Shown: in pieces, positions 19,270-64,000 of the stretch
Numbering within the stretch: position 1 is the stretch's first letter
Layout: every line of letters begins with the position of its first letter
Assembly (NCBI GenBank): GCA_000004695.1
Contig: CM000154.2
Coordinates: forward strand, 4,416,001-4,480,000
DNA from: Dictyostelium discoideum
Taxonomy: Eukaryota
DNA: 64,000 nt
Reading direction: 5' to 3'
Notes under the pieces: model-generated
What the model saw: the letters and a program-made list of their open reading frames with translations, nothing else
Databases searched by the model: none
Told to the model about the DNA's origin: nothing
Translations under genes and position numbers: made by a program

Positions 19270-21847
<2,578 letters not shown>

Positions 21848-22039: not shown

Positions 22040-23610
22040 TTAGTTATTGTTATTATTAATATTTTTTAAAATGATTGATTCATTAATTTCCCAATCTTGA
22101 TGATTATAAGAACCAATTGAAGTTAATAATTCTTTTGTGCTATTTGACATTTTGAATAAACTATTGATTTTAAAATTTGATACCATTAAATTTTGATTAT
22201 CGTGAATGTGGAATGTTGAATATCTTTTGGAAGACATTCCATTTGATTTTGAAACTAATTCAATCCATTCTTGGTAATCAATCTCTTTGCAATTGTAATT
22301 ATTTTCTAAAAATTTATAAATTGATTTCATTTCAATTGAATTACCATTTAAACTGTAAATTGAAATTGGTTTTGATTTATTTTGATTCCAACTGTTTTCA
22401 TTGAATATTAAATCGATTGTGGTTTTAGCTATAGTTGTAACTGGAGTTGTGAAAATTGATTTATAAATATTTGGATAATAACCAATCTCTTTTGAAGTTT
22501 TTAATAAAAGTGATACGAAATCATTTGAATGACCTATACCTGTTATTGGATTTGAGAATATATCTGTATTTATTATAATAATAATAATAATAATAATAAT
22601 AAAATGTTTATTTTATTAGAATCTATAAATTAAATATTAAAGGTTTATCATATATGATCTATATTTATTAATTACATACCAGGTGGTCTAATAATGATTG
22701 ATGGTATACCTCTTGATTCTGCTGCGTTTGTTAATAATTTCTCTGAAATAACTTTACATTGAATATATCCAATTGGTGTAGTATCAAAATTTGGTAATAT
22801 ATTTGTTTCTTCAAATTCTTCTCCATCTTTAAAAGGATGATTAATAAATACTGCAATTGATGAAAAATGAACTATTAACTTTTGTGAGCTATTATTTGAA
22901 ACTGATAATTTTACAATTTGATTGACGCTGTTAACATTTACAGTTTTACTTTCTTCGTAGTTTGATTTTAAATTTAAATCTGCTGCTGAATTTATAATAA
23001 TATCACATTCATTTGATAGTTTTAAATAATCTTGTTCAGTTAAACCAAATTTATCTTTTGAGATATCACCAATCATTGGAATGATTTTAATTAATTGATC
23101 TTCACTTATTTGTTTATAATATTCACTATTTTCAATATTACTTAATTTATCATTTGATATATTACCTGTATGATTGATTATTTTTGTTAATCTTTGATTT
23201 GGTGATTCTTTGTTCATATTTATTAATTGATGTTTCTTTAAATTATTAATAATTACATCGATTGGATTTGTTAATTTTGAATTATTTCTTATTAAACAAT
23301 AAATTTTTGATATATTGTTCATTTTAATTAATTCTGTTAATAAATATGCACCCAAGAATCCTGTTGAACCTGTTAAGAATATTGATTTACTATTATTACT
23401 TTTATTTAATATATTTTTAATTGAATATGGTCTTGAAATGATTGATTCATTTAATTTCATTTCATTTTTAATAAATTCATCAAGTGATTGTTGTTCTTTT
23501 TTAACCAAATTATTATTATTATTGTTATTTTTATTATTATTAATATTATTATTAATATTATTATTATTTTTATTATTATTATTATTATTATTCTTATTAT
23601 TATTATTAAT

Positions 23611-23641
<31 letters not shown>

Positions 23642-32016: not shown

Positions 32017-32853
32017 TTTCTCTTTTTATAAATAATATAAATATAAAATAAAAATAAAAATAAAATAAATTTGAAATTTAAATTATTGTTTAATATAAAT
32101 TTTTAAAAAGAAATAAATAAAAAAAAATTAAATTTTGGTTGGTTTATTATAAACTGTTCATTTTTAGTTCATATTAAATTAAAATTAAAACTGATATATT
32201 TAACAGCTTGCTTACTAAAATTTGTAAGAGGGGTGGGGGTGTGGTAAAAGTTTTTCGAAATGAAGATTAAAAAAAAAAAAAGTAATATAAAAAAAAGGGT
32301 TAGATTGTATTGATTAGATATTACCTGTAACAATATTTCTATGAATATCTTGTTATATTAATAACCCAATTTATTTTTAGTATACTTTACAATACAATAA
32401 TTATCGTCTCATTAAATTAAAAATTAATAATTATAAAATATTCAATTTTGATAATTAATTACCATTTTATACTAAATTTTATTTAATTTTTACTACGTAT
32501 GTACATTTTTATTTAATTAAATTAATTCAAAAATTTTAATTCTCCACTTGTCAGATATACACTAAGATTTAGATAATGATACTAAGGATAGAGAGAATAA
32601 TTTTAAATTCAATTCTTCATACTAAATAAGATCAAATTAAAGAAATTATTGATAATTATTATATTAATAATAAAAATCAATCACTTTTTCTAAATATTTC
32701 CCAACTCCAACCAGATTGAATTAGATGTAAAAGATAGGATTTTGAAGATATACATTATCTCATTTTTTAATTTTTTTTTTTTTTATTATTACTTTGATAA
32801 ATATTTTTTTAGTTATTTTTTATTAATTTATTATTATTTAATATTATGTTTTT

Positions 32854-33384
32854 TTAGTTACTGTTACTATTAATATTATTTAAAATGATTGATTCATTAA
32901 TTTCCCAATCTTGATGATTATATGAACCAATTGAAATTAATAATTCTTTTGTGCTATTTGACATTTTGAATAAACTATTGATTTTAAAAGTTGATATCAA
33001 TAAATTTTGATTATCATGAATGTGGAATGCTGAATATCTTTTTGATGATTTTCCATTTGATTTTGAAACTAATTTAATCCATTCTTGGTAATCGATTTCT
33101 TTGCAATTAAATTTATTTTCTAAAAACTCATAAATTGATTTCATTTCAATTGAATTACCATTTAAACTGTAAATTGAAATTGGTTTTGATTTATTTTGAT
33201 TCCAACTGTTTTCATTGAATATTAAATCAATTGTGGTTTTAGCTATAGTTGTAATTGGAGTTGTGAAAATTGGTTTATGAATATTTGGATAATAACCAAT
33301 CTCTTTTGAAACTTTTAATAAAAGTGATACGAAATCATTTGAATGACCTATACCTGTTATTGGATTTGAGAATATATCTGAATT

Positions 33385-33475
<91 letters not shown>

Positions 33476-36400
33476 GTAATAATAATATTAATAATAATAA
33501 TAATAAAATGTTTATTTTATTAGAATCTATAAATTTAATATTAAAGGTTAATCATATATTAAATATTACATACCAGGTGGTCTAATAATGATTGATGGTA
33601 TACCTCTTGATTCTGCTGCGTTTGTTAATAATTTCTCTGAAATAACTTTACATTGAATATATCCAATTGGTGTAGTATAAAAATTTGGTAATATATTTGT
33701 TTCTTCAAATGTTTCTCCATCTTTTAATTGATGATTAATAAATACTGCAATTGATGAAAAATGAACTATTAACTTTTGTGAGCTATTATTTGAAACTGAT
33801 AATTTTATAACTTGATTGATGCTGTCAACATTTACAGTTTTACTTTCTTCATAATTTGATTTTAAATTTAAATCTGCTGCTGAATTTATAATAATATCAC
33901 ATTCATTTGAAAGTTTTAAATAATCTTGTTCAGTCAAACCAAATTTATCTTTTGAGACATCACCAATCATTGGAATGATTTTAATTAATTGATCTTCACT
34001 TATTTGTTTATTGTTATTTTCACTGTTTTCAATATTACTATTTAATTTATCATTTGACATATTACCTGTACGATTGATTATTTTTGTTAATCTTTGATTT
34101 GGTGATTCTTTGTTCATATCTATTAATTGATGTTTTTTTAAATTATTAATAATTACATCGATTGGATTTGTTAATTTTGAATTATTTCTAATTAAACAAT
34201 AAATTTTTGAGATATTGTCCATTTTAATTAATTCTGTTAATAAATATGCACCCAAAAATCCTGTTGAACCTGTTAGGAATATTGATTTATTATTATTATT
34301 ATTTAATATATTTTTAATTGAATATGGTCTTGAAATGATTGATTCATTTAATTTAATTTCATTTTTAATAAATTCATCAAGTGATTGTTGTTCTTTTTTA
34401 ACTAAATTGTTATTATTATTGTTATTTTTGTTTTTGTTATTATTGATATGAGCCGATTTAATAATTTCAATTGATTGATTGATTTTATTATTTTGTAATT
34501 GTTGAATTGTGATAAGATTATGACCTATTTGATTATCGATAAAATTCTTTAATTGTACAATCACTAAGCTATCCATACCATATTGTGTGAGTTGAAGGTC
34601 TTCATTGATTTTAGATTCATCAATTGATAATAATTCACAAATCTTATTTAAAATTGTTGAACGAATAATTTCATTATTATCACCACCATTACCACTAGAA
34701 GAAGATTTGATTTGGCTTAATTTTTTAGAAATATTAATTTGATAATCGAATTTTGTTAGGAAATGATTTGTTAAAGTTGATGGTAAAACTTCAAAATTGA
34801 AATCTGATAAGCAATAGTTAGGATATTGATGTTGATTTTGAATGAATAAATCTAATGAACTAATAACGAGTTGAGGTGAGAATAGTTTTAAAATTGAACT
34901 CTTGAACATTGTTTCAATTGCATTATTACGTGATATGAAACCAGTTGATGATATCGCACCTAAATTAATGGCTAAAGATGGTAATCCAATTGAATGTCTA
35001 TACTTTGATAATGAATCGATAACACTACATGCACTAACATAACAACATTGTTGATCTGATCCAAATATTGAAACTATTGATGATGCCATTATAAATTGTT
35101 TGATATTCCATGAACGATTAATTGATTGATTGTGAAGATTGATTGCTCCAATTGTTTTAGCACCATGTGCATTATTTAAACGATTCATATCAACTTGTTG
35201 AACATCACCAATATCATTCATAAATGCAAAATGAATGATTGAATCAATATTTGTAATATTTTCATTTAATTCTAATTGATTTAATACTTGATTAACTTTA
35301 TTTGAATCTTCAATATCGATTTGATTGAAATGGAATTTAATATTATTATCTTTTTTAAATTTGCTTTGATTGATTAATAATTCTAATTCCCATTTTAATT
35401 TTGATTTTGAAAGTATTATAATATTTTCAATTGAATGGTTTGAATATTTAACCAAATATTTTAATATTTCTAAAACAATACCAGTTTGACCAGTGAGTAA
35501 AATATTTTTACCAATATTTAATTTTGAAATATCATATGAATGTTTCATTATGATTTGATTGTTATTACTTTGATAATTATTATAAACTCTATTAAATTCA
35601 TCTTGATTATGATTAACAATGATTTTACCAATATGTTTTCTTTGATTTATATATTCAATTGCATCTTTAAATTGATTATTTGAATATTCAATGATTGGTA
35701 CACTTAACTCTAATTCATTTGAATTGATCATTTTGATAATTTTCTTTAAATAGCTTTTGATTAATTTGCTTGGGAAATCTACGACTTCTACGTTATTGTA
35801 ACCCATATTAAACTTGTAATGATTGTTTGTCATATAATCATTTGGTGTGAGATGGGTGATACTTAAATCAACGATACATCCTGACATATTTAAACATTGG
35901 AAATTTGAATCCATATACTCTGATGATAATGTATTTAATATTATATCTACACCTTGTTGATTTTGTTCAACTACACCTAATTCTATTAATTTATTCTTAA
36001 TCTCGTAAACATAATCTTTATTACGAGATGAATAGATAGCAGTAATTAATGATCCATATTTCTTTGTTAAGTATTCTTCTTTATCTTTTGAACCAACTGT
36101 TAAAAATATATAACCTTGATGTTGTTTACTTTTTAATAAATCTAAAGATGATATACCGACACCACCTGCTGCTGAATGAATTAAAATTGATTCATTTGAT
36201 TTTAAATTACCAATACTATAGATACTATGTAATGATGTAATATAAATAGATGGTATTGATGCTGAAACTGAATGATTATAATTTAATGGTTTATAATAAA
36301 TAAAATTGAAATCTATAATAACATGTGAACTATTTGTTTTTGAACCAATACCACAAACTTGATCACCAACTTTAAATTTCTTTACATTACTACCTAATCT

Positions 36401-39400
36401 TGTAATTATACCACTAAAGTCATTACCAATGTTTGGATTATCAATACCAATACCATTTTCAATTTCATACTCTTTACCATATTTAATATCTAAATCTGTA
36501 CCAATCATGCCAATATACATTAAATAATCTTTATAATTTATACCATTTGCCTTAACTTCTATCTCTACTTCATTTGAATTTAATTCAGCTTTTTTACTAT
36601 ATAATTGATATTCTAAATTTGAATTTAATTGAATATATAAATTATCTTTATTGGTTTCAAATGATTCAGATTGGAATATACTTTTAATATTATTTGATCT
36701 TCTACAATATCTTTCATAGTATACTTTATTATTATTAATTGTAAATTCTTTTTGAATATTATTATTTGGATTGATTAAATAATTGATTAATGATAATTGT
36801 TGATTATTTTCAATTGAAACATTATCATAATTTAAAATATATAAATCTAATTGTGGGAATTCAACGAAATAACGAGCAGCACCAATAATTGATGATGATA
36901 AATAATTATCAGTGCTTGAATTTAATGATAATAATAAATGTTTGAAATTATTTGATAATTCTAATTTTAATATTAATTGATTAATTTGAATGTATTCAAA
37001 TGTGATTTCTTTGAAATTAAAAGTATTCATTGTTGATTCAATTGATTTTAAAAATATTATTAATGTTTTATTACAATCATCTTTATTTTGATTATTTGTG
37101 ATCCATGATTGAAATTCATTATAATTATTAATATTAATGATTTTATGTTTTAATTCTTGATTTGATCTTATTAAATCAAGAATACTACTGCTGCAACTAT
37201 TTCTATTTTTATCATTACTATTATTATTATTGCAAAATAAAATGATATTATTGAAAGAATTTAATTGATCTAATGATATTGATTGTTCTGAAATGATTTC
37301 ATTAATTGTTGGTTTTCTAGTTTGAATTAAAAATAGTAAATTATCATTACCAGACATTATTGTATCTCTATAATTACATTGATTTAAAAGGTTGATCCAT
37401 TTCTCTTGTTTCATACAACATCTATCAGGTCTTAATTCGATATCACTATCAGAGGATGGCCACCATTGTGAAAAACAACCGAAAATTGAATCATAATAAA
37501 ATGATTTGTATGGTGGTTCTATATATAAAAGTTGACCATTTGGTGTTAATATATTATGAATTTCATTTAATGTTGGTTTGAGTTTCTTAACGACATGCAT
37601 AACATTTGACATTACAATGAAATCATAATAGGATGCTTTAAGATCTTGATCTAATAATGGTTTCTCTAAATCTAATACACGATAGATAATATTTAAATTG
37701 TTATGATTTGTAAATGATGAAAACTTTTCTTTAATTTCAGCAAAAAATGATGCAGATACATCACTCCATGTAAATTCTATATTAATGATTGATGTTGTAC
37801 TATTATCGTTTAATAATTTACAAATCTTTTCTAAAATTAATAAACTAAGACTACCAGTACCGCCACCTGCTTCTAATATACGAAATACAATTGGTTCATT
37901 TAAAATTGGTTTTAGAGTTTCGACTATAATTTCACTTAATAAATTATTCAATGGTTGAACTACTCTTGAATTCTTATAAAAGTCATCTAAAAAACCACTT
38001 TCAAATAATGATTGTGGTGTATCTGTAATGGAATCATCATCTTTTAATGGGAATAGCTGTTTTGCCATTATTTTAGTTGTTCTAATATATAACTCTTCAT
38101 GTTTGGATTTAATATTACTGTGATTATTGTCATGGTTAAGAATATTACTATATCTCTTTAAATTTTCAAAAATGAATTTGAAAAGATTTTCATTTGCTAA
38201 ACTATTATAATATAATTGTTTGAATTGATTATATTCTAATGTTGTTAATGATTCTAAATTAATACTTGGAGATCTATTATTAATGTGTTTATAAAATAAT
38301 GACAATAATAATTCATTTGAAATGAATTGATTATCTTCTTCTTTGACACTAAATTCATCCACACTATATAAATGTTTGAATTGTTCAGGTTTGTTAATGA
38401 TAGAATCTTTTAATTGAAGATATGGTGTATAGATATCATTTGATGGTGGCTTACAAATTATTGTGCTATCAGGATTGGAGCCAAGTGAAACTAAAGCGCA
38501 AACTACATTTGAGATATCAACTAATAATGTACCATTTGGAAGTATGACTTTAACTGATACTGAATATGTTTGAGAATTGGTTCTTGGTTTAATATCTGAA
38601 AAAACATATAATTCTTTAATACTATCATCATCACTATTATTATTGTTGTTATTTTTATTTAATAATGGAATATTTGAAGAGTAAAATTTGAAAGCTTCAA
38701 TTTTATCAAGTACGACTGGTTGTGTAACTGCAACTAATGACCCATGTAAACAAGTATCTAAAATTGCTGCATTAAAGAATGTATTCATATTGTTATTGTT
38801 GATCAAATGATTATATTCTTTTTGATTATAAATTTCATTTAATGATACTATTGCTAATGAACAATTATTACCGATATAACATTGTTTTACACCTTGAAAT
38901 AAACCTTTGTATGTTAAATTTGTTTTAATTCTAATAGTTTCATAAAAATCTTGTTTTGACATGCTTGTAAAATTACATTTATCTTTTAATGATTGAATAT
39001 TAATTAATTTGTTACTGGTGATACTGTTATGTTTGGTTAAACTAAAATTACCAAGAGATGATAATATCCATTGATTTGTTTTTTGATCTTTGTAATGACT
39101 TTTAATATTGAATTCATTCTTTGATAATGGTGCAATTATAGTTTGTAAACATTGATTATTACCTTCTGTTAATACTAATGGTGATTTAAATTCTAATGAG
39201 CTAATTGTAATATCTTGATTTGGATAAATTGATAATAAATTATGAACATATCCCATTCCTGGATAATAGAATTTATCACTAACTTGATGACCTTTTAACC
39301 ATTGGAATGGTGATTTCTTGATATCGATAAATGTTTGATATGATAGATATGGTGAATCTGTATTATTACCAAGGTTATTAATGGATGGACCTTCACTTTT

Positions 39401-41226
39401 AATCTTTTCAAGTGATGAGTTTAGTTTAAAGTATTCTTTATCATCCCATTGGTAAAGTGGTAAATTATTTAATTTGGTTGTGTTACTAATGTTGTTGTTG
39501 TCATTGATTAATTGTGATTTGAAATTAATATCAAAATTATTATTGACATATAATAAAGAGATTGTCTTTAAGAATTCATTATAATCATTCTTCTTTTTAT
39601 TTAATGGTGAATAGATTGTAATGTTTTTACCATTATTAAAGTAACTTGATTGAGTTGATTTCATTTGATTTAAGTAATATTGTAATGTTGGATGTGGTGA
39701 AACTTCAATGAATGTAATTTCATTACCCATATCATTTGATTCGATATGTTTGTAAAGATTTGTAATTGTTTGTGTGAAATATACTGGTTGAATAATATTA
39801 TCAAATACATAATTTGCATTGAATGGTGAAGTTTGATGATTGAATAAATTGGTTGTAACTGTTGAAAATACTGCTATCGATGGTTGTTTCGATGAAATAT
39901 TTAATGAACATACTTCATCTTTAATCATTTGTTGACTTGATGTATGAAATGATGATAATGATCCTAACATTGAACAAAAGATATCATTTGATTTGAATTC
40001 ATTGGTAATTTCATTTAATAAGTCTTCATTACCTGCGATAACGATTGATGTTGGTGAATTGTAACATGCAATTTCTAATGATTTATATTTAGTTGTAGAT
40101 TGATATTTATTAATGAATTCATCTGAACTAATATTAACTGATAACATTCTACCTGTACCTGTGGTTCTATTTTGAGCTACTGATCTATGGTAAGTCAAGT
40201 AACATAATGTTTGAAAATCAATCATACCTGAACAATATGGCGATGATACTTCACCAAGAGAATGACCAATGATAATATCTGCTGAAACACCCCAATGTTT
40301 ATATAATTCATAGAGTGATACTTGAATGATAACATTTGCAGGTTGTGCTAAAATTGGTTGATGAATTGATATTAAATCTTTATCATCAATTGATCTTAAT
40401 TTATCTAAAACTGAATAACCATAATATTTGAATAACTCTTTATCGAATCTATTGACAGATTCTCTAAATATTGGTTCATTATCATATAATGATAATGCCA
40501 TTTTATTATATTGTGAACCTTGACCACATAATACCATTACTGTGATTGGTGATTTCTTTTTTTCAACTGTAATATTTGAAATTAAATTATCACTATTATT
40601 TAATTTGATTTGATTGCTTTCATCTTGAAATTCATTCCAATCACTTGCGATTATAACTGATTTTTGAATTAATGATGTTGATTTGAATTTAATTTGATTA
40701 TATACAAATTCTTTGAAACTTGTTGTTGTTGGCGATGAGTTTGAATTTGAATGTTTAATTATTGATGATTTATAATTATTTAATGATGTTGATGAATTGC
40801 TTGAGAGTGGTATTAAATATTTCTTTTTTTCATTTAAATTATTATCAATTTCCATTTTGTGATAACCATTACCATTACCATAACGACTAAGATTATTTTT
40901 AAATTCAGATAATATTAAACAAACATTTGAACCTAAATAAAAATTGATAATTTTAAATTGTTAATATAAGTTATTTGTATAAAAAGTATGTAATGATATA
41001 TTTACCAGTAACACCGAAATTATTAATTAACATGACAGTTGATTTATTTTCATTAAATTTAATTGGTTCAGTGACAACTTTTAATCCCCATTCTTTAAAA
41101 TTAATTAATGGATTTGGTTCTTTGAAATTAATATTTTGAAGAAATAGTTTATTTTTAAACATTAAACAACATTTAATTAATGATGCAACTCCTGAACATG
41201 CTGTTATTATTTATTATTATTTATTT

Positions 41227-41266
<40 letters not shown>

Positions 41267-42868
41267 AATAATATTAAATGTTAGTAATTAATGATTGACT
41301 ATGGTTATTATTGATCTAAGTCTAATTTTTAATTAATTAGCTTACCTTCAGTATGCCCAATATTTGATTTAATTGATCCAATTAAAACTTGTTTATGATT
41401 ATTATTTGTTGTTGCTGGTGCTTTATTGAAAACTCTTGATATACCTTCTAATTCTATTGGATCACCAGTTGGAGTACCAGTACCATGAGTTTCACAATAA
41501 TCAATATCAGATTCATTGATTTGACCATTGGTTGATTTGATTGCTAATTTGATATTTTCATACTGAGATGATTTTGATGGTGAATAAAAGTTTAATTTAT
41601 CAAAATTACCATCGATATTTGAACTTGATCCTTTGATTACACAATAGATATTATTTGAATCTTTGATTGCATCTTTTAATTTCTTTAATACAACGATACC
41701 AACACCTTCTGAACGAACATAACCATCAGCATCCGATGAAAATGTATGACATCTACCTGTTGGACTTAAAAGACCTAATTGTGTAAATGATTTTGAAATG
41801 TGTGGATCTATAAATAAATAAAAATTATTTGATAATTAATATATTTGTTTTAATTTTTTTTTTTTTTTTTTTTTATTTTTTTTTTTTTAATTTTTAAATT
41901 TATCACATACCTAATATAAAATTAACACCACCAACAATTGAAACATTTGATTTATTTGATTTAATTGAATTATATCCACAATTAATTGCATTTGATGAAC
42001 TTGAACAAGCTGTATCAATTGTTAAATTTTCACCTCTATTTTTTATAAAAAAATAATCACGATAATAACAATTAGTATTATAATTAAGTTTTTAGTGTGT
42101 GCCAAAAAAGATAAATCAAAAACATACCTAAAATCAAAGCAATAACCAATTCTATTTGCAACGGAATGAGTTGATGAACCAAAAATATTATTTTGAGTTT
42201 CAAATGATGATTTTTGAAGATTATTATAATCAATAGTACTACTACCAATAAATGTACTTGTATTGGTACCACGTAAACTAATTGGATCAATACCACTATC
42301 TTCTAATGCTTCCCATACACCTGTTTGTTGATTTTATTTTAAAAAACATTATTAATGGGTAAATGAAAAAAAAATGAAAAAAAAAATTTGGTGGTTATTT
42401 TTTATTTTTTTATTTTTTTTTTTTGGTTGGTTTCATTTTTATATTTTTTGGCGCCAAACCTGATGAAAATTTCCAAAACACTTATAATGAATACATACAT
42501 TTTAATAAAAATCTTTGTTGTGGGTCTATTGAACTGACATTATCATTGCTTGGATTAATTGCAAAGAAGATTGGATCAAATTGTTTCCATTCATCAAGTG
42601 GAAGTAAACCAGCAAACTTTGAAGCAATTTCACCATTTAAAAAATAATTATCAGACCATCTTTCAGAAGTTGTAACGATTCCATCCAATCCATTCAATAA
42701 TTCATTAAATAATTGATTTGGTTTGGAAATTGATTCTTTTAAACTACCACTTGGAAATCTTAAACCAATACCAATAACTGCAACATCACCACTACTACCA
42801 GCATCATCATAATCATTTATATCCCTTATTAATTGATTGTAAGTATTATTATCTGTATTTTGTACCAT
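32854..42868 (-). CDS. Type I iterative polyketide synthase, copy B (paralog of A), 7 exons, about 3075 aa
   Basis: Exons are 42499-42868, 42128-42320, 41911-42035, 41346-41807, 41006-41200, 33574-40932 and 32854-33377. Intron positions and domain motifs are identical to copy A. Length differences against copy A are confined to poly-N linkers and one codon in exon 4. Confidence 0.9.
33387..33508. repeat. (AAT)n microsatellite in the last intron of PKS copy B
   Basis: About 120 bp here versus about 30 bp at the same site in copy A (22570-22600) and about 95 bp in copy D (56704-56800). Confidence 0.9.
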
Positions 42869-43100
42869 TTTCTTTTTTCTTAATAAATTAATATAACAAA
42901 TTAAAATAAAATATAATAAAATAAATGTGATATTTAAAAATTAAAATTAATAGAAAAAAAATAAAAATTAAATTTTATTTTAAACTGTTTAACAATTTTT
43001 AGTTCATATCAAATTAAAATTAAAACTGATATTTTTAACAGTTTTGCTTACAAATTCAAAGAAGATCTGGGTGTGCTGATATTTATTTGGGAAAAATGAT

Positions 43101-43137
<37 letters not shown>

Positions 43138-44221
43138 ACAGATTGCACAGGTATAGTTTAGATTTATTTATTTTTAATTTATATAAAATCAAAATCATAA
43201 TATAACCCCCACTCCCAACATTAATAATTAATTTTATTCTTATTTTAACAATTTTTTTTTTTTTTTTTCATAAAGTTTAATATTTTCGTTGGAATTAATG
43301 ATTGGTTTTAAAATTTATAAAAAAACAGTTTATTGCAACCACATTTGTACAATAATAATTTTATCTTTTTTTTAATTGGAAAATGGTTATCAAAATTCTA
43401 ATAATGAATTTAATTTTTTCTGTTGTTTTAAAACGTTTCAAGTGTGTTTATTTTTAGAAATAATAAAAAGTTTATTAATTAATTAAAAAAAAAAAAAATT
43501 TGGTGGTTGATTTTTTTTTTTTTTTAAAAAAAAGATGTTAAATTTTAACCCAATTCCCCCATTTAAAGATCAATTTATTTTAACAAACAAAACGTTTTTT
43601 TCAATAATTTTTTTTAATATTATTTTATATAAAAAATAGTCCCTACTCTTTAAAATAATAAATCATAAAAAATAAAATAAAATAAAATAAAAAAAAAATA
43701 TTTTTTTTTATTTTAGTGATATTACCTTTTTTTATTTGATTTTTATTTAAATTGCCTCGCCGAATTGTTTTCGATTAGTTTTTAAATTTTAAAAAAAATA
43801 TCAAATTCCACTGGAAAATTTATATTATTTTTATCTTTAATTATTTTTTTTGGTAATATAACCATATTTTAATTAAAAAAAAAAAAAAAATAAAAAAAAA
43901 TATTAGAATCAAACCTTTATACTTTTATTTATCAATTAATTTAAAAAAAAGGCACTTTAACAATTGGTGAATAGAATTGTACTATATTAGTTAATAGTTT
44001 TCATGGTGAATCACCAAAATTATTTTTTATATTTAATATCTTAGTTCACATTTTCATAAGATCAAATTTTAGAATTTTATTGTTTGCCATTCATTCTTTG
44101 AAAATGGTTTTTTATTTTAAAGAACAACCAGAAGGGGGTAAATTTTATTTGTGATTTTTATAAAAAAAAAAAAATTAATTCGATTTGATTTATGAACATG
44201 GTCTTCAAATGATTGATTCAT

Positions 44222-47200
44222 TTAATTATTTTTGTTTTTGTTATTACTATTATTTTTATTATTATTATTATTATTATTTTTGTTGTTGTTTTTAGCCGAT
44301 TTAATAATTTCAATTGATTGATTGATTTTATTATTTTGTAATTGTTGAATTGTGATAATATTATGACCTAATTGATTATCGATAAAATTCTTTAATTGTA
44401 CAATCACTAAACTATCCATACCATATTGCGAGAGTTGAAGGTCTTCATTGATTTTAGATTCATCAATCGATAATAATTCACTAATTTTATTTAAAATTGT
44501 TGAATGAATAATTTCATTATTAGCACCACTATTACCACTAGAGAAGGATTTAATTCGATTTGATTTTTTAACAATATTAATTTGATAATCAAATTTTGAA
44601 TGGTATTGATTTGTTAAAGTTGGTGTTAAAACTTCAAAATTGAAATCTGATAAACAGTAATTTGGATATTGATGTTGATTTTGAATGAATAAATCTAATG
44701 AACTAATAACGAGTTGAGGTGAGAATAAATTTACAATTGAACTCTTAAACATTGTTTCAATTGCATTATTACGCGATACAAAACCGGTTGATGATATCGC
44801 ACCTAAATTAATGGCTAAAGATGGTAATCCAATTGAATGTCTATACTTTGATAATGAATCGATAACACTACATGCACTAACATAACAACATTGTTGGTCT
44901 GATCCAAATATTGAGACTACTGATGATGCCATTATAAATTGTTTGATATTCCATGAACGATTAATTGATTGATTGTGAAGATTAATTGCTCCAATCGTTT
45001 TAGCACCATGTGCATTATTTAAACGATTCATATCGACTTGTTGAACATCACCAATGTCTATCATAAATGCAAAATGAATGATTGAATCAATATTTGTAAT
45101 ATTTTCATTTAATTCTAATTGGTTCAATACTTGATTAACTTTATTTGAATCTTCAATATCGATTTGATTGAAATGGAATTTAATATTATTATCTTTTTTA
45201 AATTTGCTTTGATTGATTAATAATTTTAATTCCCATTTTAATTTTGATTTTGAAAGTATTATTATATTTTCAATTGAATGGTTTGAATATTTGATTAAAT
45301 ATTTTAATATTTCTAAAACAATACCAGTTTGACCAGTGAGTAAAATATTTTTACCAATATTTAATTTTGAAATATCATATGAATGTTTCATTATGATTTG
45401 ATTGTTATTACTTTGATAATTATTATAAACTCTATTAAATTCATCTTGATTATGATTAACAATGATTTTACCAATATGTTTTCTTTGATTTATATATTCA
45501 ATTGCATCTTTAAATTGATTATTTGAATATTCAATGATTGGTACACTTAACTCTAATTTATTTGAATTAATCATTTTGATAATTTTCTTTAAATATCTTT
45601 TGATTAATTTACTTGGGAAATCTTCGATATCCACATTACCATAGTTCATATTAAATTTGTAATGATTGTTTGTCATATAATCATTTGGTGTGAGATGAGT
45701 GATACTTAAATCAACGATACGTCCTGATAAATTTAAACATTGGAAATTTGAATCCATATACTCTGATGATAATGTATTTAATATTAAATCTACACCTTGT
45801 TGATGTTGTTCGACTACACCTAATTCTATTAATTTATTCTTAATTTCATAAACATAATCTTTATTACGAGATGAATAGATAGCAGTAATTAATGATCCAT
45901 ATTTATTTATTAAGTATTCTTCTTTATCTTTTGAACCAACTGTTAAAAATATATAACCTTGATGTTGTTTACTTTTTAATAAATCTAAAGATGATATACC
46001 AATACCACCTGCTGCTGAATGAATTAAAATTGATTCATTTGATTTTAAATTACCAATACTATAGATACTATGTAATGTTGTAATATAAATAGATGGTATT
46101 GAGGCTGAAACTGAATGACTACAATTTAATGGTTTATAATAAATAGAATTGAAATCTATAATAACATGTGAACTATTTGTTTTTGAACCGAAACCACAAA
46201 CTTGATCACCAACTTTAAATTTCTTTACATTACTACCTAATCTTGTAATTATACCACTAAAGTCATTACCAATTTTTGGATTATCAATACCAATACCATA
46301 TTCAATTTCTTTACCATATTTAATATCTAAATCTGAACCAATCATACCAATATACATTAAATAGTCTTTATAATTTATACCAGTTGCTTTAACTTCTATC
46401 TCTACTTCATTTGAATTTAATTCATCTTTTTTACTATATAATTGATATTCTATATTTGAATTTAATTGAATATATAAATTATCTTTATTGGTTTCAAATG
46501 ATTCAGATTGGAATTTACTTTTTATATTATTTGATCTTCTACAGTATCTTTCATAGTATACTTTATTATTATTAATTGTAAATTCTTTTTGAATATTATT
46601 ATTTGGATTGATTAAATAATTGATTAATGATAATTGTTGATTATTTTCAATTGAAACATTATCATAATTTAAAATATATAAATCTAATTGTGGGAATTCA
46701 ACGAAATAACGAGCAGCACCAATAATTGATGATGATAAATAATTATCAGTGGTTGAATTTAATGATAATAATAAATGTTTGAAATTATTTGATAATTCTA
46801 ATTTTAATATTAATTGATTAATTTGAATGTATTCAAATGTGATTTCTTTGAAATTTGAAGTATTCATTGTTGATTCAATTGATTTTAAAAATATTATTAA
46901 TGATTTATTACAATTATCTTTATTTTGATTATTTGTAATCCATGATTGAAATTCATTATAATTATTAATATTAATGATTTTATGTTTTAATTCTTGATTT
47001 AATCTTATTAAATCAAGAATACTACTGCTGCAACTATTTCTATTTTTATTATTACTAAATAAAATGATATTATTGAAAGAATTTAATTGATCTAATGATA
47101 TTGATTGTTCTGAAATGATTTCATTAATTGTTGGTTTTCTAGTTTGAATTAAAAATAGTAAATTATCATTACCAGACATTATTGTATCTCTATAATTACA

Positions 47201-50200
47201 TTGACTCAAAAGGTTAACCCATTTCTCTTGTTTCATACAACATCTATCAGGTCTTAATTCGATATCACCATCAGAGGATGGCCACCATTGTGAAAAACAA
47301 CCGAATATCGAATCAAAATAAAATGATTTGTATGGTGGTTCTATATATAAAAGTTGACCATTTGGTGTTAATATATTATGAATTTCATTTAATGTTGGTT
47401 TGAGTTTCTTAACGACATGCATAACATTTGACATTACAACGAAATCATAATAGGATGCTTTAAGATCTTGATCTAATAATGGTTTCTCTAAATCTAATAC
47501 ACGATAGATAATATTTAAATTGTTATGATTTGTAAATGATGAGAACTTTTCTTTAATTTCAGCGAAAAATGATGCAGATACATCACTCCATGTAAATTCT
47601 ATATTAATGATTGATGTTGTACTATTATCATTTAATAATTTACAAATCTTTTCTAAAATTAATAAACTAAGACTACCAGTACCACCACCTGCTTCTAATA
47701 TACGAAATACAATTGGTTCATTTAAAATTGGTTTTAGAGTTTCAACTATAATTTCACTTAATAAATTATTCAATGGTTGAACTACTCTTGAATTCTTATA
47801 AAAGTCATCTAAAAAACCACTTTCAAATAATGATTGTGGTGTATCTGTAATAGAATCATCATCTTTTAATGGGAATAACTGTTTTGCCATTATTTTAGTT
47901 GTTCTAATAAATATCTTTTCAATTTTTGGCTTAATATTACTTTGATTATTGTCATGGTTAAGAATATTACTATATCTCTTTAAATTTTCAAAAATGAATT
48001 TGAAAAGATTTTCATTTACTAAACTATTATAATATAATTGTTTAAATTGATTATATTCTAATGTTGTTAATGATTCTAAATTAATACTTGGACATCTATT
48101 ATTAATGTGTTTATAAAATAATGACAATAATAATTCATTTGAAATAAATTGATTATCTTCTTCGTTGACACTAAATTCATCCACACTATATAAATGTTTG
48201 AATTGTTCAGGTTTATTAACTACTGAATCTTTTGATTGAAGATATGGTGTATAAATATCATTTAATGGTGGTTTACAAATTATAGTACTATCAGGATTGG
48301 AGCCAAGTGAAACTAAAGCGCAAACTACATTTGAGATATCAACTAATAATGTACCATTTGGAAGTATGATTTTGACTGATATTGAATATGTTTGATAATT
48401 GGTTCTAGGTTTAATATCTGAAAAAACATATAATTCTTTAATATCATCATTATTGTTGTTTTCATTTAATGATGGAATATTTGAAAAGTAATATTTGAAA
48501 CCTTCAATTCTATCAAGTACGACTGGTTGTGTAACTGCAACTAATGACCCATGTAAACAAGTATCTAAAATTGCTGTATTTAAGAATTTATTCATATTGC
48601 TATTGTTGATTAAATGATTATATTCTTTTTGATTATAAATTTCATTTAATGATACTATTGATAATGAACAATTATTACCGATATAACATTGTTTTACACC
48701 TTGAAATAAACCTTTGTATGTTAAATTTGTTTTAATTCGAATAGTTTCATAAAAATCTTGTTTTGATATGCTTGTAAAATTACATTTATCTTTTAATGAT
48801 TGAATATTAATTAATTTGTTACTGATGATACTGTTATGTTTGGTTAAATTAAAATTACCAAGAGATGATAATATCCATTGATTTGTTTTTTGATCTTTAT
48901 AATGACTTTTAATATTGAATTCATTCTTTGATAGTGGTGCAATTGTAGTTTGTAAACATTGATTATTACCTTCTGTTAATACCAATGGTGATTTAAATTC
49001 TAATGAGCTAATTGTAATATCTTGATTTGGATAAATTGATAATAAATTGTGAACATATCCCATTCCTGGATAATAGAATTTATCACTAACTTGATGACCT
49101 TTTAACCATTGGAATGGAGATTTCTTGATATCGATAAATGTTTGATATGATGGATATGGTGAATCTGTATTATTGCCAAGACTATGAATGGATGGACCTT
49201 CACTTTTAATCTTTTCATGAAATGAAGCAATTTTAAAGTATTCTTTATCATCCCATTGGTAAAGTGGTAAATTATTTAATTTGGTTGTGTTACTAATGTT
49301 GTTGTTGTCATTGATTAATTGTGATTTGAAATTAATATCAAAATTATTATTGACATATAATAAAGAGATTGTCTTTAAGAATTCATTATAATCATTCTTC
49401 TTTTTATTTAATGGTGAATAGATTGTAATGTTTTTACCATTATTAAAGTAACTTGATTGAGTTGATTTCATTTGATTTAAGTAATATTGTAATGTTGGAT
49501 GTGGTGAAACTTCAATGAATGTAATTTCATTACCCATATCATTTGATTCGATATGTTTATAAAGATTTGTTATTGTTTGTGTGAAACGAACTGGTTGGCG
49601 AATATTTTCAAATGCATAATCTGCATTGAATGGCAAGCTTTGATGATTGAATAAATTGGTTGTAACTGTTGAAAATACTGCTATCGATGGTTGTTTTGAT
49701 GAAATATTTAATGAACATACTTCATCTTTAATCATTTGTTGACTTGATGTATGAAATGATGATAATAATCCTAACATTGTACAAAAGATATTATTTGATT
49801 TGAATTCATTGGTAATTTCATTTAATAAGTCTTCTCTACCTGCGATAACGATTGATGTTGGTGAATTGTAACATGCAATTTCTAATGATTCATATTTAGT
49901 TGTAGATTGATAGTTATTAATGAATTCATCTGAACTAATATTAACTGATAACATTCTACCTGTACCTGTGGTTCTATTTTGAGCTACTGATCTATGGTAA
50001 ATCAAGTAGCATAATGTTTGAAAATCAATCATACCTGAACAATATGGTGATGATACTTCACCAAGAGAATGACCAATGATAATATCTGCTGAAACGCCCC
50101 AATGTTTATATAATTCATAGAGTGATACTTGAATGATAACATTTGCAGGTTGTGCTAAAATTGGTTGATGAATTGATATTAAATCTTTATCATCAATTGA

Positions 50201-52561
50201 TCTTAATTTATCTAAAACTGAATAACCATAATATTTGAATAACTCTTTATCGAATCTATTGACAGATTCTCTAAATATTGGTTCATTATCATATAATGAT
50301 AATGCCATTTTATTATATTGTGAACCTTGGCCACATAATACCATTACCGTGATTGGCGATTTCTTTTTTTCAACTGTAATATTTGAAATTAAATTATCAC
50401 TATTTTCTAATTTGATTTGATTATTTTCATCTTGAAATTCATTCCAATCACTTGCGATTATAACTGATTTTTGAATTAATGATGTTGATTTGAATTTAAT
50501 TTGATTGTGTACCAATTCTTTGAAACTTGTTGTGGTTGTTGGCGATGAGTTTGAATTTGAAAGTTTAATTATTGATGATTTATAATTATTTAATGATGTT
50601 GATGAATTGCTTGAGAGTGGTATTAAATATTTCTTTTTTTCATTAACTTTACTATCAATTTCAATTTTGTGATATTCATTTTCATAACGATTATGATGAT
50701 TTTTTTTTAATTCAGATAATATTAAACAAACATTTGAACCTAAATTAAAATTGATAGTTTTAAATTATTAATATAAGTTATTTGGAATCATTAATGATGT
50801 ATATTTACCAGTTATACCGAAATTATTAACTAACATGACAGTTGATTTATTTTCATTAAATTTAATTGGTTCAGTGACAACTTTTAATCCCCATTCTTTA
50901 AAATTAATTAATGGATTTGGTTCTTTGAAATTAATATTTTGAAGAAATAGTTTATTTTTAAACATTAAACAACATTTAATTAATGATGCAACTCCTGAAC
51001 ATGCTGTTATTATTTATTATTATGAAAAATATTTAATGTTAGTAATGATTTATAGCTCTAAAGTTAATTAATTAACTTACCTTCAAGATGTCCAATATTT
51101 GATTTAATTGATCCAACTAAAACTTGTTTATTATTATTTATTGTTGTTGATGGTATTTTAGCACTATTGAAAACTCTTGAAATACCTTCTAATTCTATTG
51201 GATCACCAGTTGGAGTACCAGTACCATGAGTTTCACAATAATCAATATCAGATTCATTGATTTGACCATTGGTTGATTTGATTGCTAATTTGATATTTTC
51301 ACACTGAGATGATTTTGATGGTGAATAAAAGTTTAATTTATCAAAGTTACCATCGATATTTGAACTTGATCCTTTGATTACACAATAGATATTATTTGAA
51401 TCTTTGATTGCATCTTTTAATTTCTTTAATACAACGATACCAACACCTTCTGAACGAACAAAACCATCAGCATCTGATGAAAATGTATGACATTTACCTG
51501 TTGGACTTAACATATCTAATTGGGTGAACGATTTTGAAATGTGTGGGTCTATAAATAAAATTTTTTTGATAATTAATATATAATTCTAAAATTTTCTTTT
51601 TTTTTTTTTCAAATTTATCACATACCTAATATAATATTAACACCACCAACGATTGAAACATTTGATCTATTTGTTTTAATTGAATTATATCCACAATTAA
51701 TTGCATTTGATGAACTTGAGCAAGCTGTATCAATTGTTAAATTTTCACCTCTATTTTTAAAATAACAATTAGTATTTAAGTTTTATTCTTCCAAAAAAGA
51801 TAAATCAAAACATACCTAAAATCAAAGCAATAACCAATTCTATTTGCAATTGAATGAGTTGATGAACCAAAAATATTATTTTGAGTTTCAGATGGTGATC
51901 TTTGAAGATTATAATAATCAATAGTACTATTACCAATAAATGTACTTGTATTGGTACCACGTAAACTAATTGGATCAATACCACTATCTTCTAATGCTTC
52001 CCATACACCTGCATGTTTGTTAATTTTATTTTAAAAAACATTATTAATGGGTAAATAAATAAATAAATAAAATAAATAAATAAATAAATAAATAAAAGAA
52101 AAAAAAAATTTTGGTGGGTTCATTTTTTTTATTATTTATTTTTGGCCAAACCTGATGAAAATTTCCAAAACACTTAATAAATACATACATTTTAATAATA
52201 ATCTTTGTTGTGGGTCTATTGAACTGACATTATCATAAGTTTGATTAATTGCAAAGAAGATTGGATCAAATTGTTTCCATTCATCAAGTGGAAGTAAACC
52301 AGCAAACTTTGAAACGATTTCACCATTTAAATAATAATTATCAGACCATCTTTCAGAAGTTGAAACGATTCCATCCAATCCATTCAATAATTCATTAAAT
52401 AATTGATTTGGTTTTGAAATTGATTCTTTTAAATTACCACTTGGAAATCTTAAACCAATACCAATCACTGCAACATCACCATCATCATTTCTATCAACAT
52501 CATCATCATCATTTCTATCCCTTATTAATTTATTATTATTATTATCTATATTTTGTGTCAT
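44222..52561 (-). pseudogene. PKS copy C, 3'-truncated: KS-AT-DH-cMT-ER-KR-ACP intact, reductase domain and last exon lost
   Basis: Exons are 52189-52561, 51816-52008, 51626-51750, 51081-51548, 50809-51003 and 44222-50739. The reading frame is open for about 2623 codons. Homology to copies A/B ends at about 44185, inside the sequence encoding NESIISRP of the reductase domain. A deletion of about 70 bp relative to copy B shifts the frame to a TAA at 44222-44224. Sequence below 44185 is unrelated to PKS. It could still be expressed as a reductase-less PKS. Confidence 0.75.
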
Positions 52562-52574
52562 TTTCTCTTTTTAC

Positions 52575-52690
52575 AAATAAATAAAATAAAATAAAATAAA
52601 ATAAAATAAAATAAAATAAAATAAAATAGAATAAAATAGAATAAAATAGAATAAAATAGAATAAAATAGAATAAAATAAAATAAAATAAA
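52575..52690. repeat. (AAAAT)n / (GAATAAAATA)n minisatellite immediately upstream of the PKS copy C start codon
   Basis: Direct read: aaataaaataaaat... then five units of aataaaatag. Confidence 0.85.
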
Positions 52691-53975
52691 TAAATAAATT
52701 TGATATTTAAATAATAGAAATAAAAAAAAAAATTAAATAAAAAATTTGATGACGTTTATAGTTTTTGAAAAAATAAAAATAAAAAAAAGGTTAGATTGTT
52801 TGGATATTACTTTCAACACAAATAATTAATTTTAATTTTTGTTTTTTTTTTATTTGACCCAAAATTATGTTTTTTTTTATTTTTTTTTATTTTTTTTTTT
52901 TAAAATCTGGTGACTCTATATAAAAAACTATTTAATAGATTTAACTTAATGTATAGTTTGCTTTTGTGTTTGTAAATTTAGAAAAAAAAAAAAAAAATGA
53001 AATGTTGCAACTTTTTTATTTTTTTTGTTTCTATTTGATATCTCTTTTTTGTTATATGTTTACTTTACGAATTTATTACAGAAAAAATATAAATACATTC
53101 ATCTAAAATATAAATGCATTAATCTAAAATTTACATTTTTTCTGAAATCTAAAATTTTATACATTCATCTAAAATATGATTTTTTATTTCAGAAAGTGAT
53201 ACCTTTTGGTCACATATTTTACATGGCACAACTATTGGTGAAAGTTTACTCATTTCAGTCATTTTTAAATTTAAAGATAAAATATATATGTATTAGACAA
53301 AAAAAAAAAAATTAAAAAAATTTATATGAGACTCCTTATTATGTTTTATAAATTTTAATACGACAACAATTTCGACAAAAAAAACATTTTTTTTTCAAAA
53401 AAAAAACTTTTTTTTTCTGAAAATATTACACCCAGACACAAAAAATTAATTTTTCACCACTTTAATGCTGAAATTTTTACACCCTTAATTAGATTATAAC
53501 TTTTTTTTTTTTTTTAATTTATTGTTTTTATTTTTATTTTTGTTTTTATTTTTGTTTTTAAAATTAAATAATAAAAAAACAGTTTATTGAAATCAAGATG
53601 TTGAAGTATATTACAAAAGGTACAATGGTCATTTTTTTATTTTGGTTTTTTTTTTAAAATTAAAATAAAATAAAATTAAACAGTTTTCAAAAAATAAATT
53701 AAAAAAACTTTTTTTTAAACTGTTTTCAAGTGCGTTTTTAGAAATAAAAAAAGTTTTTTAATTATTAATAAAGAAAAAAAAAAAAAAAATTTGGTGGTTT
53801 TTTTTTTTTTAATAGAAGGTTAAAATTATTTTAACCCACTTCCCCAAAATTTAAATATATCAATTTGTTTTTAACAAAAACATTATTGGTTTTTTTATTT
53901 CATAATTTAAATAGTTTTTTTTTAAAAAAACTTTAATATAAAAGATTCTCAATTTATATATTTTATAATATTACA

Positions 53976-55730
53976 ATGAATACAATATTTACAATTATTT
54001 TAACAATTACAATATTAGTATTATCATTAATATTAAAAGTAAAATTTTAAAATATTATATATATTATTGACTATTAAAAATTAAACACTTACTTATACTT
54101 TTATTTTTTTAAATAGGATTTATTATTTGAAGGTAGGATTAAAAAAATTAATAAATTAATACCTGGTCCTTCTACAATTCCAGTTTTTGGTAATTTATTA
54201 CAAATTAACGCAAAAGATTTCCCAAAAAGTGTAAATGATTTCTATGAAAGATATGGCAAAGTTTTTAGATTAAGATTGGGTAGTGTTGAAATTGTTGTTC
54301 TAACTGGACCTGAAGTTATTGATGAATGTTTTAATAAAAAACATAGAGAAATTTTCAAAGAAAGATATATTAAATTCTCAAGATTTTTGGGTAAAGATTA
54401 TAATATTTTTTCTTCAAATGGTGATTATCATTATGTTCTAAGAGGAATTCTTACAAGTGAAATTACAACAAGAAAGTTAAATAATGGCAGATTAGAATCA
54501 AATAAATTTATTTTAGAAATGTTTAGTAATCTTTGTAAAGATAATAAAGAAACTCTTGTTAAAAATACACCAAATCAAATTAGGATTCTTGCTGTTAAAT
54601 TAATATTAAATTTCACATTAGGAATTGAAGAGAATGACGAAACCATTCTAATCATTGTAGAAAAGATTAAATGCATTTTTGAAGCTGCTGGATTATTAAT
54701 TTACTCTGATTATTTACCATTTTTATTTCCATTAGATATAAAATCAATGTCAAAGAATGATATTATTTCTAGTTACTTTTTTATAAAAGATTTTATAGGT
54801 ATAAAACTTGATGCTATTAAAATTAAATATGAAAAAGAAAATGAATTGAAAAATGAAACTACTGATGAAACATCTTCAAAACTAAACAATATTCCAATTA
54901 TTGAGAATTATTATAAAAATTATTTAGATGGTTCAATTCATTATGATTCAATCTTGTTTTCAATTTCTGATATTATTTTTGCAGCAGTTGATTCAACATC
55001 CAATGGGTTTAGTCTTTTAATTGGTCAATTAATTAATAAACCTGAAATTCAAGATAAAATATATGAAGAAATCATGAGAAATGATGAAAATAATAATACA
55101 AATAATATATCATTTGCTGATCATACAAAATATCCATATATTATTTCTGTAATGAATGGTAATTATCCATATATATATATATATATTGGTATTAATATGT
55201 GTTGATATATTTTTTCAAAAAATAAATTTTGTATTAATTTGAATAATAGAATCATATAGATATAATTCTTCAGTACCAATAACTGAACCGAATAAAACAA
55301 CAGAAGATGTTGAAGTAAATGGATATAAAATTGCAAAAGGTACAATGATAATTAAAAATCTTCGTGGTACACATTTATCAAAAGAGTTTTGGGGTGAAGA
55401 TGCTTTAGAATTTAAACCAGAAAGATTTAAAAATCAACCTTTAAATCAAAAAGGACTTTTTCATTTTGGTGCAGGTATGTTTTAAACTATTTTGAAATGG
55501 GAATCAAAATTTATCACTAATACAATAATAAATATTATTTTATTTAAACAGGAGCTAGAGCTTGTCCAGGAGGAAGATTTACAGAATCTTTTACTTTTAC
55601 TTTTTTGGTGATAATGTTAAAGAATTTTAAAATAGTCAATCCAACTGATATTCCAATTGATGTTGAAGGAGAAGTTGGTTTGGCAATGCAATGTAAACCT
55701 TTTGATGCCTTATTCATAAAACGTAATTAA
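53976..55730 (+). CDS. Cytochrome P450 monooxygenase, 4 exons, 502 aa
   Basis: Exons are 53976-54038 (MNTIFTIILTITILVLSLILK, signal anchor), 54117-55158, 55250-55474 and 55552-55730. Donors are GTAAAA, GTAATT and GTATGT. It has the I-helix AAVDSTS (AGxDTT-like), the PERF motif (EFKPERF) and the heme-binding loop FHFGAGARACPGGRF. It is divergently oriented to PKS copy C, whose ATG is about 1.4 kb away. Confidence 0.85.
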
Positions 55731-55914
55731 AAAAAAAAAAGAATATATTTTTTATTATTTTAATTATTGTTTTCATTTAAATGTAAATAAAAAAAAAAAA
55801 AAAAATAATATTTAATATATTTGTTTTTTAATTTGGTTTCTTTTATTGTTTTTTTTTATTATTGTTTTTTAATTATTTTTATCATTAATTTTTTTTTTTA
55901 TTGTATTTTTTTTA

Positions 55915-56100
55915 AGAATTATATTTTCAAGATGGTTATTTTATAATAAACCCAGATATTAATTAAGTGGTCACTTAAAATATTAAATAACCAGTTTGAA
56001 TGATTAAGATAGATCAATTACCTATCACTCATATTATATTTGATAACAAAAATAATAAACAATAAGTAATAATTTTATTGCAATCCTATATAGGATTTTG
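55915..56100 (+). other. Degenerate partial copy of the 3' end of the 19370-21847 orphan gene (relic of the duplicated unit)
   Basis: 55921-55990 is similar to 21301-21360 (agatggttattttataataaacc.agatatta.ttaagtg). 56003-56100 is similar to 21806-21895 (atcaattacctatcactc....ataattttattgcaatcctatat). About 440 bp of the source gene between those blocks is absent. 56100-56165 continues homology with the region downstream of the PKS-A stop (21985-22080). Confidence 0.7.
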
Positions 56101-56162
56101 GTTTTATCTCTTTTTTATTATTATTAATCTTACTTTGATTAATCTTTTTATTTTATTTTATT

Positions 56163-64000
<7,838 letters not shown>

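Follow-up and report, generated by a model that had tools for sequence, protein, structure and literature searches.

A rearrangement breakpoint in the 3′-terminal part of pks31, a polyketide synthase gene without thioester reductase in a tandem array of Dictyostelium discoideum

Among fungal highly reducing polyketide synthases (PKSs), those lacking a release domain rely on a separate hydrolase, as LovB does on LovG. The gene considered here, pks31 of Dictyostelium discoideum (DDB_G0290703), encodes a synthase that likewise ends at or directly after its acyl carrier protein (ACP) and is unable to set its product free on its own, although its homology to the LovB/LovG-type enzymes is at the level of general PKS domains only. 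It lies in a stretch of 64,000 nt from chromosome 5 of D. discoideum AX4 (contig CM000154.2 of assembly GCA_000004695.1, forward-strand positions 4,416,001 to 4,480,000), called the window in the following, which has a G+C content of 13-27% and whose long minus-strand open reading frames (ORFs) are type I PKSs. Release domains of the thioester reductase (TR/R) type (PF07993, e.g., MxaA, structure 4U7W) have their counterparts in the neighbors of pks31, namely pks29, pks30 and a further copy termed D, all of which match this domain directly after the ACP. In pks31, by contrast, only 35 nt of the leader preceding the domain are left, and these are untranslated.

Among D. discoideum PKSs (DdPKSs), an off-loading domain is present in 21 out of 40 and absent from the remaining 19, for example from Pks16 (PMC12828403). 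The pks31 product is like the latter in showing the order KS-AT-DH-MT-ER-KR-ACP and in ending at the ACP, with release presumably taking place in trans. It is unlike them in that its TR was lost recently, with neighbors of 92-95% identity still keeping theirs; most of the other TR-less DdPKSs are found in other clades. Expansion and turnover of PKS genes in dictyostelids have been described before (Sucgang et al., 2011; PMC3188802). The present locus is in line with this description in being a young tandem array with species-specific copy number and decayed copies, whereas that paper does not cover the features resolved below at the nucleotide level, namely the junction itself, concerted evolution and repeated loss of the domain. 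The TR-less architecture of pks31 is already annotated, and the junction at its 3′ end is nothing unusual for a tandem family that evolves fast by duplicating, converting and deleting its copies; a literature search found no paper in which DDB_G0290703 is named. The breakpoint provides a dated, nucleotide-level example of a TR-less architecture arising from a reductase-bearing ancestor, in an array where duplication, conversion and deletion are still going on.

The 3′ end of pks31

Comparison of the window with itself revealed four tandem PKS units arranged head-to-tail on the minus strand, in the order pks32 - P450 - pks31 - pks30 - pks29 (copy D, a cytochrome P450 gene, and copies C, B and A):

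21960-32296, minus strand: PKS unit A, pks29 (DDB_G0290699, 3106 aa)
32743-43132, minus strand: PKS unit B, pks30 (DDB_G0290701, 3075 aa)
44193-52667, minus strand: PKS unit C, pks31 (DDB_G0290703)
44222-52561, minus strand: pks31 gene, with ATG at 52561 and stop at 44222-44224, 100% identity and coverage to DDB_G0290703
53975-55730, plus strand: cytochrome P450 gene, intact, pointing away from pks31 and toward copy D
56104-64000+, minus strand: PKS unit D, probable pks32

Copy D is probably pks32, because a published quantitative PCR primer for pks32 is a perfect fit to D but has mismatches to A and B. DDB_G0290703 is listed in UniProt as Q54FQ1, 'Probable polyketide synthase 31', with 2623 aa, and the window ORF at 44225-50515 agrees with it at 100% identity.

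The pks31 product is a type I iterative highly reducing PKS with the architecture KS-AT-(DH)-MT-ER-KR-ACP, followed by a poly-Asn tail and without a thioester reductase. Pfam matches above the curated cut-offs were obtained for KS, AT, MT, ER (ADH_N/ADH_zinc_N_2), KR and ACP, with PKS_DH_N just under its cut-off (26.2 vs 27), and the catalytic motifs DTACSS, HGTGT and NIGH (KS Cys/His/His), GHSLG (AT) and GMDSL (ACP serine) are intact. A Pfam match to PF07993 (NAD_binding_4) was found neither in pks31 nor in its counterpart C′ from D. cf. discoideum. The respective domain of pks29, pks30 and copy D matches PF07993 with E=4.5e-44, in pks30 at residues 2668-2943, where it starts at the Rossmann motif LTGSTGFLG, and the closest solved structures are MxaA (4U7W, E=8e-18), a type I PKS reductase (8V1X) and NRPS/CAR reductases. 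Judged from these matches, the domain missing from pks31 is a predicted terminal thioester reductase. Leader and TR domain are located as follows in the other three copies:

22040-23455, minus strand: TR leader and TR domain of pks29, equivalent to the pks30 region
32854-34352, minus strand: TR leader and TR domain of pks30, two exons with an intron of ~100 nt containing an (ATT)n tract
56163-57653, minus strand: TR leader and TR domain of copy D, equivalent to the pks30 region

A first-pass annotation of the window had let the reductase region of pks30 extend only down to 33566; it runs on over the intron to 32854. The second TR exons of A, B and D end with stops at 22040-22042, 32854-32856 and 56163-56165, respectively, and since the reductase region of these copies spans the intron into the second exon, pks31 is without ~1.4 kb of 3′ gene sequence. 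For its four PKS bodies the window has no more than three TR regions, each being contiguous with its own gene. As a side observation, the (ATT)n microsatellite of the TR intron is long in pks30 (33381-33506) and copy D (56699-56801) and short in pks29 (22572-22602); similar tracts occur again at 19270-19984 and in spacers of the wild isolate FIW.

The break was placed by a four-way alignment of the 3′ ends of copies A, B, C and D, which confirmed that copy C parallels the others through the ACP and the poly-Asn linker. Beyond the linker, the sequence down to the upstream region of pks30 comprises the following elements:

44222-44224, minus strand: stop TAA of pks31, inside the 35-nt remnant
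44193-44227, minus strand: TR-leader fossil of 35 nt, 31/35 identical to A 23421-23455, with 44193 as the last homologous base
44175-44191, minus strand: 17-nt exact copy, AAATCAAATCGAATTAA, of the pks31 pre-ACP sequence 44550-44566, one base from the break
43636-44174, no strand assigned: AT-rich spacer of ~540 nt, partly conserved in the wild isolates FIR and FIW (44011-43412)
43242-43751, no strand assigned: decayed paralog of the bidirectional P450/pks31 promoter, namely of the half nearer to the P450, matching 53493-54038 at 64.5%
42869-43132, minus strand: proximal upstream region of pks30 (ATG at 42868), common to the upstream region of pks29, forming the upstream edge of the B unit

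Several elements of this arrangement had been recognized in the first-pass annotation, namely the ~35 bp of retained reductase-region sequence, the stop at 44222 and the copy B upstream region, which had been assigned to the sequence below about 43200 and is found from 43132 downward. The abrupt loss of homology is real as well, but it had been placed at about 44185, whereas copy C can be aligned with its paralogs down to 44193 and is unalignable from 44192 downward, which puts the break at 44192/44193. An internal deletion on the ACP side of the 35-nt remnant likewise exists, its size being ~52 nt of leader (equivalent to ~34349-34401 in B) and not about 70. The TAA at 44222-44224 stands in frame only because this deletion shifted the frame. 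Translated to pks30, the break corresponds approximately to residue 2651 (between ..SRPY and SIKN..), 16 codons upstream of the start of NAD_binding_4 (2668) and of LTGSTGFLG. The break had been thought to fall in the middle of the reductase domain; it lies in the leader in front of it, and therefore the whole TR domain is gone, which makes this a clean whole-domain loss. Together with the comparisons below, these observations show that the junction at 44192/44193 is real and old; the rearrangement that ended pks31 here was probably a non-homologous one.

The 17-mer next to the break, AAATCAAATCGAATTAA, has exactly two exact matches in the window, compared to 0.03 matches (with at most one mismatch) expected by chance. 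Its source lies 359 nt from the copy beside the break and carries a variant that is specific to copy C and in common with C′ of D. cf. discoideum. With this exact copy one base from the break, the site shows a junction signature of non-homologous repair (microhomology or templated insertion). The 17-mer is probably templated filler from end joining or template switching, and as such it would point to one of these processes and not to homologous exchange.

For the adjacent spacer (43636-44192), no paralog above the reversed-sequence noise ceiling of ~69 bits was found in the window or in five related loci, with the exception of the orthologous spacer of FIR. The part from 43636 to 44174 shows no similarity to the P450 gene, the reductase exons or the PKS flanks at the DNA level, nor, for P450 and TR, at the protein level, and tblastn searches with relaxed settings for P450 or TR remnants in 43100-44300 yielded low-complexity noise only. 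Neither a tRNA gene, checked as a possible retrotransposon target, nor an Rfam family was detected in the spacer. For the promoter remnant, a global alignment forced on the B-C spacer and the C-P450 intergenic region gave no useful information and local alignment was required; by the latter, the core at 43423-43635 aligned to 53710-53930 with a score of 131 vs 43 ± 6 for dinucleotide shuffles. In FIR, the orthologous remnant is likewise similar to the P450 promoter of the same isolate (188 vs 52 ± 7). The paralogy between spacer and P450-proximal upstream region claimed before is thus real, but it extends over ~380-500 bp and not over 600 bp. The source of the remnant is the 5′ flank of the P450 gene, and the remnant now lies within the region upstream of pks30.

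The array in other isolates and species

An exact copy of the 1301-nt junction segment was found in a second chromosome-level AX4-type assembly (GCA_054883475.1). In the wild D. discoideum isolates FIR (GCA_054859385.1) and FIW (GCA_054859355.1), the order is P450 - truncated C - B, and the poly-Asn tract of C is joined to the same post-junction DNA (AX4 44011-43412). Both isolates are without ~207 nt that are kept in AX4, the 35-nt fossil included, and therefore the AX4 allele is the most informative one. In AX4 this segment is bounded by AAAAATAATT direct repeats, which were read by eye from the printed sequences, no search for them having been made. Additionally, the FIR copy in the position of pks29 (L001 21201-30012) was observed to miss ~985 nt in comparison to AX4 pks29 (26444-25459); its longest ORF has 455 codons, so that this copy looks disrupted.

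In D. cf. discoideum (FIZ, GCA_054859235.1), the order is D - P450 - C′ - B′, with C′ encoding 2600 aa. The FIZ spacer is orthologous to AX4 43255-43489, which is beyond the upstream region common to all copies (score 119 vs 48 ± 7). The context of the C′ stop is the same as in AX4, AATAATTAAAT (L002 18495-18560 vs window 44240-44200). The C′ sequence following an (AAT)5 run, TAATCAATATTGG, could represent a degenerate version of the leader remnant of AX4, GAATCAATCATTTG, a resemblance that is suggestive only and without statistical support. The third PKS after the P450 in the same species (L007 21217-29877, called at 2617 aa) also ends right after the ACP. This copy keeps the normal 3′ flank of full-length genes (score 108 vs 50 ± 7 against the pks30 flank) and shows a clean TR deletion reaching from the post-ACP poly-Asn linker to the C-terminal poly-Asn tail, the locus sequence ending at 29877. 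This is a second TR loss, clearly independent of the pks31 junction.

In D. firmibasis, the arrangement is D - P450 - full-length PKS - unrelated genes, which is likely the ancestral state. D. citrinum contains three tandem P450-PKS units (L004 20217-30100), two of them with a decayed PKS: the second consists of the first ~1.7 kb only, the third has several internal deletions. AX4 has three PKS copies after the P450 and FIW has five (contig JBTAPG010000038.1; 2244, 3070, 3012, 3033 and 3075 aa), compared to a single one in D. firmibasis. Furthermore, two full-length copies of FIW have a short 3′ fragment of the P450 gene immediately beyond their 3′ flank (L008 20077-20193, L006 7759-7912). The comparison of orthologous loci, which had been proposed as a check along with the original description, thus shows a truncated C in FIR, FIW and D. 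cf. discoideum and a full-length gene in D. firmibasis. That the break is a real one at the edge of a repeat unit, not a product of assembly, is borne out by the identical junction in the second AX4-type assembly and by the same layout in FIR, FIW and D. cf. discoideum. In practical terms, expression and knockout studies on pks29 to pks32 need copy-specific markers, and copy number as well as integrity of the genes differ between AX4 and wild isolates.

Within single genomes, the synonymous divergence (dS) between paralogs amounts to 0.085-0.103 in AX4 and to 0.079-0.089 in FIZ, compared to 0.101-0.130 between the positional orthologs of AX4 and FIZ. The two copies of D. firmibasis are 0.037 apart from each other and ~0.5 from D. 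discoideum. The commonest class of shared substitutions is species-specific (FIZ_B+C+D), an exclusive AX4_C+FIZ_C class is missing among the shared substitutions, and which paralog is closest to C changes along its length, resulting in a mosaic identity. All these patterns indicate that the array is under concerted evolution by gene conversion. Ordering the duplications by copy divergence was considered and rejected, as gene conversion has erased positional orthology; with the genealogy of the copies erased in this way, divergence cannot decide between models of how the junction originated.

Origin of the junction and state of pks31

The most economical origin of the junction, to which we assign slightly less than an even chance, would be a one-step, head-to-tail duplication of ~9.9 kb, with one end in the 5′ region of the P450 gene and the other in the TR leader. 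Such an event would leave the upstream copy (pks31) without a TR, while the downstream copy (pks30) would get a partial copy of the promoter together with its native TR and 3′ flank. A second deletion, of 52 nt, then put the TAA into frame, and gene conversion has since kept the body of pks31 92-95% identical to its neighbors. The one-step model is the most economical one because a single event explains the TR-less pks31, the promoter remnant and the full-length pks30. A duplication starting at the reductase had already been suggested in the first-pass annotation, and one step does indeed explain the order of the elements; the start in the middle of the domain is wrong, however, and two steps fit equally well. 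Some findings weigh against the one-step duplication. The ~540 nt at 43636-44174 find no match in the P450 5′ exons or elsewhere, and therefore a clean two-breakpoint duplication junction is not demonstrated. Sequence of the proximal boundary, from the P450-side promoter, lies 440-560 nt past the break, the DNA in between matches nothing, and a deletion model fits this spacing alike. Moreover, duplication of whole units followed by deletion does occur in the array, as seen from the P450 fragments of FIW and the P450-PKS units of D. citrinum.

It is a serious possibility, if a less than even one, that the whole unit of P450 and PKS was duplicated and that ~3.4 kb were deleted afterwards. This deletion would take the pks31 TR exons, the short stretch between the genes and all of the second P450 but its promoter, which would be left before pks30, giving an end structure identical to the one observed. 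D. citrinum, with its series of P450-PKS-P450-PKS fragment-P450-PKS and its truncated or deleted PKS copies, as well as the FIW fragments left after two full-length copies speak for such a course, and large deletions are frequent in the array. Nevertheless, two events are invoked where one is enough, no P450 or TR coding remnant is present in 43636-44192 at the DNA or protein level, and the predicted intermediate was found at the pks31 position in none of the sampled genomes. As to the age of the junction, the parsimonious reading is that the truncation of D. cf. discoideum C′ and the AX4 junction have a common origin. It is no more than the parsimonious reading because TR loss is recurrent and because 270 nt next to the C′ stop are unalignable with AX4, which counts against a shared junction. 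The same 270 nt, in which the 35-nt remnant was not found as such, and the separate TR loss in the third copy of the same array would fit an independent truncation of C′, with the AX4 junction being specific to D. discoideum. We regard this as improbable in view of the identical gene order and position, the common stop context AATAATTAAAT with the possible degenerate remnant after it (..AATCAAT.ATT.G..), the orthologous spacer from 43255 to 43489 and the C-specific variant of the 17-mer that both species have in common. An assembly artefact, in which contigs were misjoined within a repeat and the true reductase of pks31 lies elsewhere, comes to mind since units of ~10 kb at 92-95% identity are hard for short-read assembly. 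It is hardly credible given that the independent chromosome-level assembly GCA_054883475.1 contains the identical junction, that GCA_054859385.1, GCA_054859355.1 and GCA_054859235.1 show the same arrangement, and that the three TR regions of the window are all accounted for by their own genes; the check for a misassembly raised earlier thus revealed no different join and no full-length reductase for copy C in the window.

With regard to the state of the gene, both a naturally reductase-less PKS and a decaying pseudogene had been put forward at first. The AX4 data favor an intact, constrained gene, whereas the wild isolates show decay. The pks31 ORF of AX4 is uninterrupted over 2623 codons, and the 2600-codon ORF of D. 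cf. discoideum is intact too. The ratio of nonsynonymous to synonymous divergence (dN/dS) between the C copies of AX4 and FIZ is 0.39 over 2157 codons. Substitutions unique to AX4 copy C comprise 24 nonsynonymous and 22 synonymous changes (omega ~0.26, p=1e-5 against neutrality), a constraint indistinguishable from that of pks30 and copy D. In addition, pks31 transcripts are reported among the pks transcripts changing in an RNA-seq experiment (PMC12625978). On this basis, we put it at an even chance that pks31 of AX4 encodes a working, TR-less highly reducing PKS, with its product putatively released in trans. Several points weigh against a working enzyme. The FIR ortholog (L001 5860-9119) has a frameshifting 3.6-kb deletion and a 5-nt insertion, and the FIW ortholog (L008 1564-8954) has an in-frame deletion of 1167 nt (AX4 49547-48381) that takes the end of the AT and the DH region, each as seen in a single assembly. 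These deletions could be real polymorphism or assembly collapse. By the standards for a disabled pseudogene, the AX4 gene is not one, whereas the FIR ortholog would be one and the FIW ortholog one in part. Since wild isolates carry such large internal deletions, we read pks31 as dispensable. Furthermore, the low omega and the open ORF could come from functional neighbors by gene conversion, which weakens the dN/dS test.

Following this last argument, pks31 may already be a non-functional relic in AX4, inactivated by the loss of its release domain, with ORF and low dN/dS upheld only by conversion from pks29, pks30 and pks32, an alternative that we consider possible, if somewhat doubtful. The strong concerted evolution across the array, the independent large deletions in FIR (frameshifting) and FIW (DH region lost) and the neutral-looking further decay of the 3′ end by deletions of 52 nt and 207 nt are all in line with a relic. 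It is harder to reconcile with an ORF of 2623 codons in which every checked catalytic motif is kept, with the intact ORF in D. cf. discoideum, with the reported transcripts (PMC12625978) and with the fact that the substitutions unique to AX4 pks31, which are unexplained by conversion from the sampled copies, are constrained like those of pks30 and copy D. A TR-less architecture is also normal for about half of the DdPKSs (PMC12828403). For natural-product work, pks31 and either pks30 or pks32 form a near-isogenic pair, 92-95% identical and with the release domain as the main difference.

Flanking repeats and neighboring sequences

The TR region of pks29, pks30 and copy D is bracketed by a perfect 16-nt direct repeat, AATGAATCAATCATTT, which encodes NESII and is located at the following positions:

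22069-22084 and 23436-23451: pair in pks29
32883-32898 and 34333-34348: pair in pks30
56201-56216 and 57634-57649: pair in copy D
44207-44222: single copy in pks31, included in the 35-nt fossil

These are seven matches in the window compared to 0.01 expected, with copy C keeping the leader copy only. A recombinant origin of the 35-nt remnant from the two TR-flanking 16-nt repeats was considered and rejected, as the next 14 nt match the leader and not the C-terminal tail. It is plausible that the recurrent TR loss was promoted by the flanking repeats. A further-reaching idea, which we consider unlikely, is that the TR is a detachable cassette in this clade, bracketed by AATGAATCAATCATTT and by tracts of the Asn codons AAT/AAC, and that it was lost at least twice independently, giving selectable versions with and without TR (TR+ and TR-). 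If this were true, near-identical TR+ and TR- synthases would arise, selection could use such pairs for different chemical release forms of the same chain, and TR- synthases could heterodimerise with their TR-bearing neighbors.

Next to the PKS genes, the window contains a gene for an alpha-kinase with a WD40 propeller in the neighborhood of the array (10910-13171, minus strand), a domain pair that resembles that of myosin heavy chain kinases. An ORF at 6095-7147 (minus strand) gave a weak MIP/aquaporin match, and a plus-strand ORF of 922 aa at 19079-21844, which sits in repeat-rich DNA, gave no Pfam match. The downstream flank of pks29 contains two blocks, 21296-21357 and 21802-21883, that are 92% and 81% identical to 55912-55973 and 56010-56091, respectively, i.e., to the stretch that separates the P450 stop from the 3′ terminus of copy D. 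Going by these two common blocks, the 3′ flank of pks29 therefore derives from a D-type flank.

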